A stretch of 20,633 bases of DNA from a virus (lineage: Duplodnaviria; Heunggongvirae; Uroviricota; Caudoviricetes). Position numbers: made by a program. This document shows, in pieces, positions 6,001 through 9,000 of the stretch (position 1 is its first letter; the number at the start of each line of letters is the position of its first letter). Location: the IMG/VR virus record IMGVR_UViG_2529293039_000014, one strand, 5' to 3'.

Positions 6001-9000
6001 AGCACTACCAGCGGATGTTCCGTAGGCAATGCCAGTAGAGATTTTGTCCATTGATTTCATAGCAACGCCTCCGCCAGTAACGGATTGCGTAGTTCTTATA
6101 TTGGGAAGGGGAAAAAAGAAGGCCGCAGCGTAACTATCACTAATAAATTCAGGACAGCCAGTGGCTACGGCTCAGTTTGGGTTGTGGCGGCCGGAATCGA
6201 ACCGGCTTCCATCGGTGCGCTGCCGATTGCAGTACGCGCGGCGGTCAGCTATATGACTAGTATTTTCACTATCGCCTATCTGCTAGCTCGCCATTGAGCT
6301 TCACCACAACGATAAGAGCACTGCGCGGCACCTTTCACCAATTCCGCGAGGTCTGCGGGTTCAATGCTCTTACCTGTTGTGCAGAAAAAAAACCACACGG
6401 CAGCGAGTTTAAGCTGTGTGGCGAAGTTACCTCTCTTCACCAAGTATTCGGTAATAAAATAACTTGTGGTGTTCTCGTTTTTATGCCGATAAAATAAACG
6501 GTCCACTTTCAAATGGAGCGATTCATGATTTTTCTCAGAACTGAAAACGGCATCGAGAAACTTGAAAACTGGGAGGAAATTATATCCAGACCAAACTTTG
6601 TCACCACTATAGACAAAGGAGTTCAACAACTTGAGGAGATAATTGGTTACTACAAATTTAAAGAAGAAATCCACTGTGGTCTAACTGGTTGCAACCAACC
6701 ACATCAAATGGGTTATATTGTAAAAACATCTAGTGGCATTGAAACCAACATCGGAAATAAATGTGGTAAAAACGAATTTGGTGTGGAATTTGGTGAAAAC
6801 GTTCTTAGTTTCAATAAATTTATGCAACTCGAAACCAATCGGGAAATTATTAGCACCGCAAAAAGTAAATGTGAAGCGTGGCAAAAAAATATTGAAACGA
6901 TACGAAATATCAAACCCACAATAGATTATCTATCTTCTACCATCGAAAATAGTAAAAATTCCAATTACTCCGGAAGACTTGGTGCTACAGAAATTCGTTT
7001 TTTGACCAAGAACCAGACAGGCCTTGTAACCCTTTCTGAAGTGGAAACTGATAAGAATACCAAAACAATTCTGTTCGCAATGAATGAACACATGCGCGAG
7101 TCTGGAGAGGCAATAAGTGAATTCTACATAGGAAAAGTATCATTTAGTCATGTTCTTTTACCAGAAAACAATCTTCGTGATTTTTTTGTTGCGCTCAAAG
7201 AAGATCTAAAAAAAATTCAGTGTATTGATCTACAAACAGCCCCAAGCCCAGAAATTTCTAATGTTGCCAAAATTGCCAGTTCAATCGAAGAACGAATCAA
7301 GCGATTAAAAAAACTGAAACATGAAGCCAGTAAATTCCTAACTAAAAAAAATCTGCGTCCCATCGCAAACAAAATAAAATACTCATCGACAGCGGATGAA
7401 CTTGAATTCCATAATTTCGAACGCTTTTTAAAAGGGCTGAAATGATAAAAGCCCCGAAAGGGGCTTCTATCAAAATCATTTACGCATTATTCCGCATGCT
7501 TAAAAGAATACATGACAGATTCGGACAAAATCAAGTGCAATGTCGCAAAAACCCTAAGCTTAGTTCACATCATCACCAAAACTTGTCACATTCTGAAAAG
7601 CAATATCGGCCTTACGCTCTTCCTGGTGGCAAATGTCAACCAGAGAATCAAGAAACGGCTTCCAATTACGCGTCCATGTCCTGACATGTAGCTCGGGTAT
7701 CCGCTTCAGTACAACTTTATATACTGTGGTAGACGGTACCGTGGAAAATCCATTTCCGCTGCAACGTTCGCAGATTTTAAACACTGGCACACCACGCTCG
7801 CTTGTGGCTTTGCGGTCCAGTACCTCTCCCTTTCCACCACAACGACACCTGGCACTTATCACTCCCTTCCCTTTACATACATCGCAAACGACTGGTACAA
7901 CTTCCGTTACCTCTGTCCATTTCTCCCAGTCTGACGGTCGAACAGCACGGGAGCGACTGGCCCAATATGGTGCTTTACCCCATGGGTATGAAACCTTACG
8001 AATGACCTGCTTACGGGGTGTTAGTCCGGTACCACTGCAACTATGGCATGTTACGCTGGTGTCCGCCGATCGGGAATACTCAGCAAAAGCAAACTGCGCC
8101 AGTACCAGCATACACCAGCCAAATTCACCACCAGCTGCTTTACGCACATTCTTCGGTGCAATTTCCATCGCGTGACGCGCCAGCGCTTGGACTGCCATCT
8201 GCTCATCAGTCTTGCTGATACCGGCCTTCCCGAAGAAGGCCGCCAAGCCAAACCGTTCACGATTGCTGGTGGTACCAATAGCCGCCATAACATCGGTGCC
8301 TGTAAGACGTTCCGGAGAGGTTCCTTTCACATCGTCGCCGATATACATTCCCTGAGGACTGAAGTATTTTAGCGATGCCTCAAGCTTCATTATTCACACT
8401 CCCCAACCAGATTAAGAATAACCGCCGCGCCATTGTCTTTCATATATTCGCCCTTTCCGCTTGCCAAAAACCAACGACACACCTCCACTGCTTCAGCCCG
8501 TGTCACCGGTTTGATGGTCATCAGCAATTTTTCAAGGTAGCGCTCGCGGTCATATACCGATTCGTGATGCTCAGAGTAACCATACTCATCGCCCTGTTCT
8601 TTAGACGCAGTGTGGCGAACACTGTAGAGCCAGTCCCAGTAAACAAACTCACGAACTACGTCTGACAATGTATGAGGCTCTGGCAGTACATCACGATAGC
8701 CATCAACATATGCACGACGCTGATCATCAATTTCATTCATACGGATGCCATCAATTCTGCCCGCTGTCTTCTCGGCTGCAGTCCAGCCCCAGAGATGATC
8801 GTCGATAAATTTCTGGGAAGACTTGATCACTCGCTCGGCTTCCACATCTTCGAGTGCTGCTTCATAGCTACCAAACGTAGCCCTGACTGATGTTGCTTTT
8901 TTGATATTCTCCCGGGCGATCCTGATTGCCTGTGCCGGGTTATCCATGCCGATGGTACCGAAAGCAATCTGGAAAGGATCACCACCATTCGCCAGCAGAT

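Follow-up and report, generated by a model that had tools for sequence, protein, structure and literature searches.

The window analysed here is the 20,633-nucleotide (nt) IMG/VR record IMGVR_UViG_2529293039_000014 (Duplodnaviria; Heunggongvirae; Uroviricota; Caudoviricetes), a lambdoid prophage in which a single open reading frame (ORF) on the plus strand, hereafter the cargo gene, lies between the Q antiterminator and the holin (Table 1). An earlier note, made from the sequence alone, had described it as an AT-rich orphan gene inserted antisense to the late genes, with its own expression signals and a possible role in anti-phage defence or lysogen fitness. The antisense orientation is borne out: all neighbouring genes are on the minus strand. 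The 310-codon ORF that the note placed at 6513-7445 is also present, but its start needs correction. Translation almost certainly begins at ATG 6525, giving a protein of 306 amino acids (aa), because GGAG lies 6 nt upstream, all homologues start with MIF or MIT at this point, and the PHROG profile aligns from residue 5 of the longer reading. Calls by PGAP in related genomes (921-bp genes) agree with this start. The gene has its own Shine-Dalgarno sequence, as had been proposed, and it is kept as GGAG or AGG among homologues.

Table 1. Features of the cargo locus and of the surrounding prophage (positions in the window)
Feature	Position	Strand	Details
Cargo coding sequence	6525-7445	+	306 aa plus stop; PHROG 7003
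Shine-Dalgarno GGAG	6515-6518	+	Spaced six nt from ATG 6525; homologues have GGAG or AGG
Candidate cargo promoter	6467-6495	+	-35-like TGGTGT 6467-6472, 17-nt spacer, -10 TAAAAT 6490-6495
Codons of Cys51-x4-Cys56-x3-His60-x19-Cys80	6675-6764	+	6675-6677, 6690-6692, 6702-6704, 6762-6764
Left-border hairpin (terminator-like)	6385-6421	-	9-bp stem 6393-6401/6413-6421, then T8 (6392-6385)
tRNA-like fragment (doubtful)	6179-6237	-	T-arm-like GGTTCGATTCC and 3' acceptor-like end; outside the mobile module
GC-rich hairpin (core 7449-7466)	7444-7471	both	Abuts the cargo stop codon; minus-strand side followed by TTTTATCATTT
Candidate Q-dependent late promoter pR'	7505-7534	-	-35 TTGATT 7534-7529, -10 TATTCT 7510-7505, TTTTGTCCGAA between the hexamers
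Q antiterminator	7560-8390	-	PF03589, E 2.6e-52; PHROG 127; convergent with the cargo gene
P21-type class II holin	5845-6060	-	PF04971, E 1.4e-35; first lysis gene downstream of the cargo slot
Lysozyme	5348-5845	-	
Rz	4884-5363	-	
Unassigned protein	8390-9247	-	
Toprim primase	9247-10215	-	
Helicase	10217-11875	-	
Cro/YdaS-like gene	12911-13183	-	Immunity region
cI-like S24 repressor	13240-14007	+	Within the second AT-rich stretch
Helix-turn-helix protein	14154-14582	+	Immunity region

The base composition, which the note had called visibly AT-rich, could be put into figures: the fraction of G and C (GC) is 0.34-0.37 over 6401-7600 and 0.48-0.53 on both flanks. The cargo gene is real and under purifying selection, with a ratio of nonsynonymous to synonymous substitution rates (dN/dS) of 0.08-0.10 against four homologues. 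A spurious ORF is ruled out by the low dN/dS together with the confident structure model and the large protein family described below. Between the window copy and the copy in an Stx2f phage (L003, 4140-5060) there are four nonsynonymous and no synonymous differences, numbers too small for interpretation.

The gene is no orphan. Its product matches PHROG 7003 over the full length (residues 5-310 of the 310-aa reading against positions 1-309 of the 309-position profile, E 1.7e-110), and the family has more than 1,000 clusters, where family counts refer to representatives of 50%-identity clusters. PHROG 7003 carries no annotated function, so the match names the family and explains nothing. A word-indexed search recovered 103 clusters from Enterobacterales (Escherichia, Salmonella, Enterobacter, Citrobacter, Leclercia, Pectobacterium, Serratia, Yersinia and Providencia) at 29-98% identity, nearly all of them 305-307 aa long. 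A hidden Markov model search of 1.84 billion representatives extended this to 1,002 clusters at E<=1e-3, of which 172 reach E<=1e-30, and nearly all are again about 300 aa in length.

Across 87 diverse members, Y43, C51, C56, H60, G63, G77, C80 and G81 are invariant and N75, F85 and N276 nearly so. The C-x4-C-x3-H-x19-C pattern formed by four of these residues most plausibly marks a structural zinc site. In the AlphaFold2 model (mean predicted local distance difference test score, pLDDT, 92.5; predicted template modelling score, pTM, 0.79), all four putative ligands fall within a beta-rich N-terminal domain (residues 1-86), and residues 87-306 form a helical bundle with a small beta-hairpin insert. 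Neither a transmembrane or hydrophobic segment nor a signal peptide was found in the protein, which is predicted to be soluble, and no charge or membrane feature is consistent across family members.

Pfam and NCBIfam return nothing significant, either for the cargo protein or for profiles built from 87 full-length and 40 N-terminal sequences. Searches of the PDB by sequence and by profile found no relative, and no convincing fold match emerged despite the confident model. The earlier note had recognised no family motif; this holds, and no housekeeping or structural family matches the protein. The beta-beta-alpha metal fold, catalytic His and metal-binding Asn/His that mark the His-Me finger (HNH) group were not found, nor is there a porin or Shiga toxin subunit domain. 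HepS of Gifsy-1 was considered as a counterpart and ruled out, as HepS is a HEPN protein. Given no homology in Pfam, NCBIfam, PADLOC or the PDB, a biochemical activity is therefore not assignable to the cargo protein by homology.

Upstream of the gene, an alignment of 17 loci whose proteins are 40-100% identical shows a near-invariant TAAAAT at a constant spacing to the ATG. This conserved -10 box is good comparative evidence that the gene has a promoter of its own, though one that is weak by consensus, and it substantiates the promoter-like leader of the earlier note even though a generic scan misses it. On the left side of the module, the note had reported a strong minus-strand terminator and a tRNA remnant. 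The hairpin and its run of eight T are present and conserved, but the claimed strength is not: the fold is thermodynamically modest (-13 to -14.8 kcal/mol, z -1.1 to -1.5). It may be described as a terminator-like element for transcripts that head from the cargo region to the holin. For the tRNA remnant the case is weak. ARAGORN calls no tRNA on the 5' side of the cargo gene, the match to the tRNA/tmRNA clan on the minus strand is below threshold (20 bits against a gathering score of 47), and in comparison with the phage tRNAs that siblings carry at the same position the T-loop alone matches. An intact tRNA at this place is ruled out on these grounds.

The hairpin at the 3' end of the gene folds well in either direction, with -22.3 kcal/mol (z -5.6) for the minus strand and -19.1 kcal/mol (z -4.5) for the plus strand, but the minus strand has the better T-tract and the plus-strand U-tail is weak. 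Its surroundings give it a different meaning from the one first proposed. When the Q-proximal intergenic region of 17 loci is aligned on the minus strand, a common layout follows the Q stop codon: a -35 box TTGAyT and a -10 box TATnnT, a conserved block (TTTGTCCGAA or TTTGCATAAA) between them, and, 45-55 nt beyond the -10 box, a GC-rich hairpin and a T-run, the stem sequence varying by locus. Lambda Q binds pR' between its -35 and -10 boxes, and a short transcript ends at tR'. The Q protein of the window is a relative of lambda Q (PDB 7ubm, 4mo1), and by analogy with lambda the same pR'-tR' scheme would apply here, with TTTTGTCCGAA as a putative Q-binding element.

Both hairpin and pR' are kept in a prophage in which the cargo gene has been deleted (L009). 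Because the hairpin is conserved after pR' and is retained without the cargo gene, it is foremost the tR' of the late operon, and the cargo gene thus sits just inside the Q-controlled late unit, facing the late operon. The hairpin at the gene's 3' end that the earlier note described is real, but it does not belong to the cargo gene alone; read on the plus strand, it is that gene's sole terminator candidate. Many Escherichia coli prophages, for example those of O157 strains, match the window at 98.5% only over 7747-8400 and then diverge. This breakpoint at about 7747, inside Q, is a mosaic junction, by which the C-terminal half of Q is joined to pR'-tR' and the cargo gene in a single unit of exchange.

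Close relatives show how the cargo gene behaves. The window is an stx-less sibling of Stx2f prophages (NZ_CP027550, NZ_CP039404 and NZ_CP171883), to which it is 98.6% identical over 4883-19055, the stx2f segment excepted. The same module, 99% identical, occurs next to several left-hand contexts, namely stxA2f/stxB2f (L003), four tRNA genes (L002), or neither of these (L001 and the window). Across the four left contexts homology starts at one sharp point, about 6386-6388, which is the A/T-run of the left-border hairpin. In the Stx2f prophages stxA2f/stxB2f and tRNA-Thr/Gly stand directly to the left of this border. Five E. coli genomes from mouse gut (M8, IGC_EcoliInv_1.1, IGC_RcoliRes_1.1, RSHH22 and SK6988) carry the gene at 99.2% identity in another left-hand context, with homology that likewise starts at window position 6386.

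Two sibling prophages (L009, 3970-3999, and L010, 3992-4920) have flanks that are 93-98% identical and differ by a clean deletion of about 929 bp in L009, which takes the promoter and the first ~92% of the gene and leaves its last 73 bp, the hairpin, pR' and Q. Another sibling with the same replication genes (L169, from E. coli Ch1) has a different Q, followed by an antisense porin of the nmpC/lc type in the slot (3769-4875). Only 16-17 of 5,426 complete E. coli genomes hold the cargo gene, against 4,135 with matches to parts of the Q region. The cargo gene is thus dispensable and exchanged between phages as a unit. The earlier note's view of the gene as a cargo insertion in the Q-to-holin slot is confirmed by its presence or absence among near-identical prophages, the sharp left junction and the 929-bp deletion. 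In Salmonella, dozens of entries (P0047-P0076) are partial and stop where their contigs of 24-28 kb end; breaks in or beside the homologue are common in short-read assemblies.

The same orientation recurs throughout the family. The downstream neighbour is on the opposite strand, and so convergent, in all 51 IMG/VR loci examined, and 36 of these neighbours are Q antiterminators, which belong to two Pfam families (PF03589 and PF06576/PF06530). Distant members (25-30% identity), such as those of a Klebsiella prophage and of the temperate Pseudomonas phage Atpa001, lie beside cI-like S24 repressors and opposite to the flanking genes. Among 50,697 phage records the carriers are temperate phages only, and none is virulent. 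A scan of one genome per species found 77 loci in Beta- and Gammaproteobacteria, including Burkholderiales, Pseudomonas, Neptuniibacter, Lysobacterales, Endozoicomonas and Nitrosomonadales. No partner gene is conserved among the four neighbours of each of 37 genomic loci, and the non-viral neighbours include integrases, resolvases, transposases, ImmA/helix-turn-helix pairs, Gabija (two loci) and a methyltransferase of the MmeI type. Of 39 genomic loci, 34 have a homologue with lower GC content than the surrounding DNA, and so do all seven viral loci checked. Q neighbours, repressor neighbours and islands that lack Q together point to an association of the family with lysogen-side accessory slots of mobile elements, and not with Q as such.

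Two further local arrangements were seen. In four distant loci (L056, L058, L083 and L084), a 93-aa ORF on the minus strand, a putative gene at most, overlaps the 3' end of the homologue and has no Pfam match. In Pseudomonas phage Atpa001 (L171, 3477-5489), another opposite-strand gene, 36c (329 aa), comes after the homologue 37c on the same strand, and the two lie in an otherwise minus-strand block near the repressor; 37c-36c may be a two-gene variant.

What kind of element is this? Region 6385-7471 is very probably an insulated prophage moron, a unit of one gene. In the sense of Hendrix and Juhala, a moron is an additional transcription unit placed between two genes of a phage operon. Four of the features by which morons are recognised are found here: a promoter of its own at the level of sequence, a terminator, a distinct composition, and presence or absence in close relatives. 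A fifth, expression from the repressed prophage, is predicted. The terminator in question is the 3' hairpin, which is shared with tR' and has a weak U-tail on the strand of the gene.

The kind of element is already known, a moron in the Q-S slot with the geometry of nmpC, and it is the protein family itself that is uncharacterised. In prophages of the DLP12 and PA-2 type, the nmpC/lc porin is likewise one gene directly after Q, with which it converges, and it too is antisense to the lysis genes; in E. coli K-12 DLP12 (NC_000913.3, 574529-576825), the order is quuD, then antisense nmpC, then essD. Both genes are accessory and oriented as lysogen genes. The cargo protein, however, is unrelated to the porin and, having no porin domain, signal peptide or membrane segment, must act by a mechanism that is cytoplasmic. 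The stx2f genes occupy the same Q-S interval, directly to the left of the module in Stx2f prophages. Unlike the cargo gene, which is antisense and has its own promoter, stx is in sense orientation and its expression depends on Q read-through. The regulation expected for the cargo gene is therefore the reverse of that of stx, on in the lysogen and off after induction.

Elsewhere in the window, an element of the IS66 family lies on the plus strand (HTH_Tnp_1 ORF 1-648, TnpB_IS66 648-995, DDE_Tnp_IS66 1015-2586). The terminase large-subunit gene that adjoins it (2613-3500, minus strand) encodes just 295 aa with the GpA ATPase domain only. The window prophage is probably packaging-defective, with the cargo gene intact. 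A second AT-rich stretch (13000-15400, GC 0.31-0.44) covers the immunity region.

So, what might the cargo gene do? We favour a reading in which the module was acquired from a source of lower GC content and lodged directly downstream of pR'-tR', antisense to the late operon. In the lysogen, the cargo gene would be transcribed because transcripts from pR' end at tR', short of the gene, and transcription from its own weak sigma-70 promoter would be unopposed. Upon induction, Q-modified RNA polymerase would pass tR' and run head-on over the whole cargo gene, silencing it, which would be a built-in way to spare the prophage's own lytic cycle. The product would be a single-protein anti-phage factor that acts in superinfection exclusion or abortive infection. 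Its zinc domain would recognise a protein or nucleic acid derived from the invading phage, while its helical part would either oligomerise or stop the invader at some step of its cycle. This would be a matter of binding or oligomerisation and not of catalysis; no enzyme class is recognisable in the protein.

For a defence role as such, we see the chances as evenly balanced, and the antisense switch, in which late transcription would shut the cargo gene off at induction, seems to us by analogy with lambda an even bet as well. For the whole, that is moron, defence and antisense switch together, we estimate a probability of about 0.45. A wider form of the idea, in which the family would be a new and widespread class of single-protein prophage immunity with a Cys-Cys-His-Cys (CCHC) sensor, a helical-bundle block, self-immunity through placement at pR'-tR' and possibly a modulation of stx2f, is rather unlikely and put forward tentatively.

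The closest parallel to the favoured reading is BstA of Salmonella phage BTP1 (PMC8585504), which is also a single prophage gene of ~300 aa beside regulatory genes and acts by abortive infection. Both proteins combine an N-terminal putative binding domain with a C-terminal domain of unknown fold (PMC8585504), and both would need self-immunity while their own prophage is induced. In contrast to these likenesses, the cargo protein has no sequence relationship with BstA, no KilA-N or other Pfam domain, and no PADLOC match. The means of self-immunity differ too: in BstA it is a DNA element inside the gene, whereas for the cargo gene we propose antisense late transcription.

A published machine-learning screen, DefensePredictor, has independently predicted a defence function. 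The 306-aa homologue annotated in the undeleted sibling prophage L010, WP_032207072.1, is 85% identical to the cargo protein and is listed in DefensePredictor Table S10 (PMC13092281, Science 2026) as 'Predicted novel defense gene', with a mean log-odds of 7.87 (range 6.88-8.36) against a cutoff of 4. The table holds 1,041 predicted but uncharacterised clusters drawn from 3,000 E. coli genomes, and 42 of 94 predictions that were tested gave defence; in the tables of these 94 tested and 42 validated systems, as far as they were available to us, the cluster representative does not appear (PMC13092281). The defence idea is thus plausible, independently predicted by DefensePredictor, and unproven. 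Searches of the literature by accession numbers, by PHROG identifier and through papers on Stx2f phages found no functional statement on the cargo gene and no name for it.

Several observations weigh against the favoured reading. DefensePredictor partly uses gene context, so its call overlaps with the argument from context, and more than half of the tested predictions gave no phenotype (PMC13092281). The defence-model scan that the earlier note had suggested was run with PADLOC and no model matches: PADLOC-DB 2.0.0 has no family at E<=1 for the cargo protein, and its models gave four isolated matches at chance level for 87 relatives. Domain searches found no recognisable effector (nuclease, NTPase, TIR, HEPN or membrane segment), and defence genes are neighbours in only a few of the 37 genomic loci. 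As to expression in the lysogen, a generic scan for the sigma-70 consensus finds no site on the plus strand, in keeping with a promoter that is weak by consensus, and the AT-rich island could be silenced by H-NS.

The same evidence has to be read against other functions. A gene of lysogenic conversion or fitness without a part in defence, whose zinc-domain protein modulates a host process such as regulation, stress or colonisation, would account equally well for the composition, junction, promoter and deletion that mark the moron. Many morons modulate host processes to the lysogen's benefit. The slot also hosts toxins (stx2f) and porins, the carriers include gut-adapted mouse E. coli and Stx2f pathogens, and the protein has no effector domain of the defence type. 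Yet the hosts and habitats of the family are very varied, from soil and marine Beta- and Gammaproteobacteria to Pseudomonas and Burkholderia phages, which argues against a factor specific to one host niche; the absence of a signal peptide or membrane segment speaks against a surface or secreted factor, and the DefensePredictor call favours defence. On balance we regard a conversion gene as unlikely, if the most serious competitor.

The position of the gene invites a different thought, that it acts on the phage's own late switch. The protein, or convergent transcription through a leaky hairpin, would damp Q and pR' and so stabilise lysogeny, and in Stx2f phages toxin expression would be damped too. 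The poor plus-strand U-tail of the hairpin would permit such leakage, the gene is always convergent with and abutting Q-pR'-tR' in enterobacterial prophages, with two Q families, and lambda itself uses an anti-Q antisense RNA, paQ. But distant members lie beside cI-like repressors or in non-phage islands without Q, the same Q and pR'-tR' exist in phages without the cargo gene, and mere transcriptional interference needs no 306-aa protein under strong purifying selection, which makes a late-switch regulator quite improbable. A role in counter-defence or early in the lytic cycle, such as inhibition of a host immune system, would be in character for a phage protein that is small, non-enzymatic, fast-diverging and free of known domains, and phage accessory regions also hold anti-defence genes. 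Such a protein would hardly be expected to stand opposite to every surrounding lytic operon with its own promoter, as in 51 of 51 viral loci, to occur in temperate phages and integrated elements only, with no virulent phage among the 50,697 records, or to stay intact in a prophage whose truncated terminase gene abuts IS66. We consider a counter-defence or lytic-cycle protein similarly improbable.

Should the cargo gene do nothing measurable against phages, it would be one more well-documented moron of unknown function. If it is protective, as the favoured reading of an antisense-controlled defence moron has it, it would represent a new defence family without a recognisable effector domain and with an unmatched fold, and a family present in more than 1,000 clusters across temperate phages of proteobacteria would be a good entry to a new mechanism. 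The layout would then give a prophage a simple means of turning its immunity gene off while it is being induced. It also bears on Stx2f phages, where late transcription has to cross an opposing unit of ~1.1 kb and a second terminator-like hairpin before it reaches stx2f.

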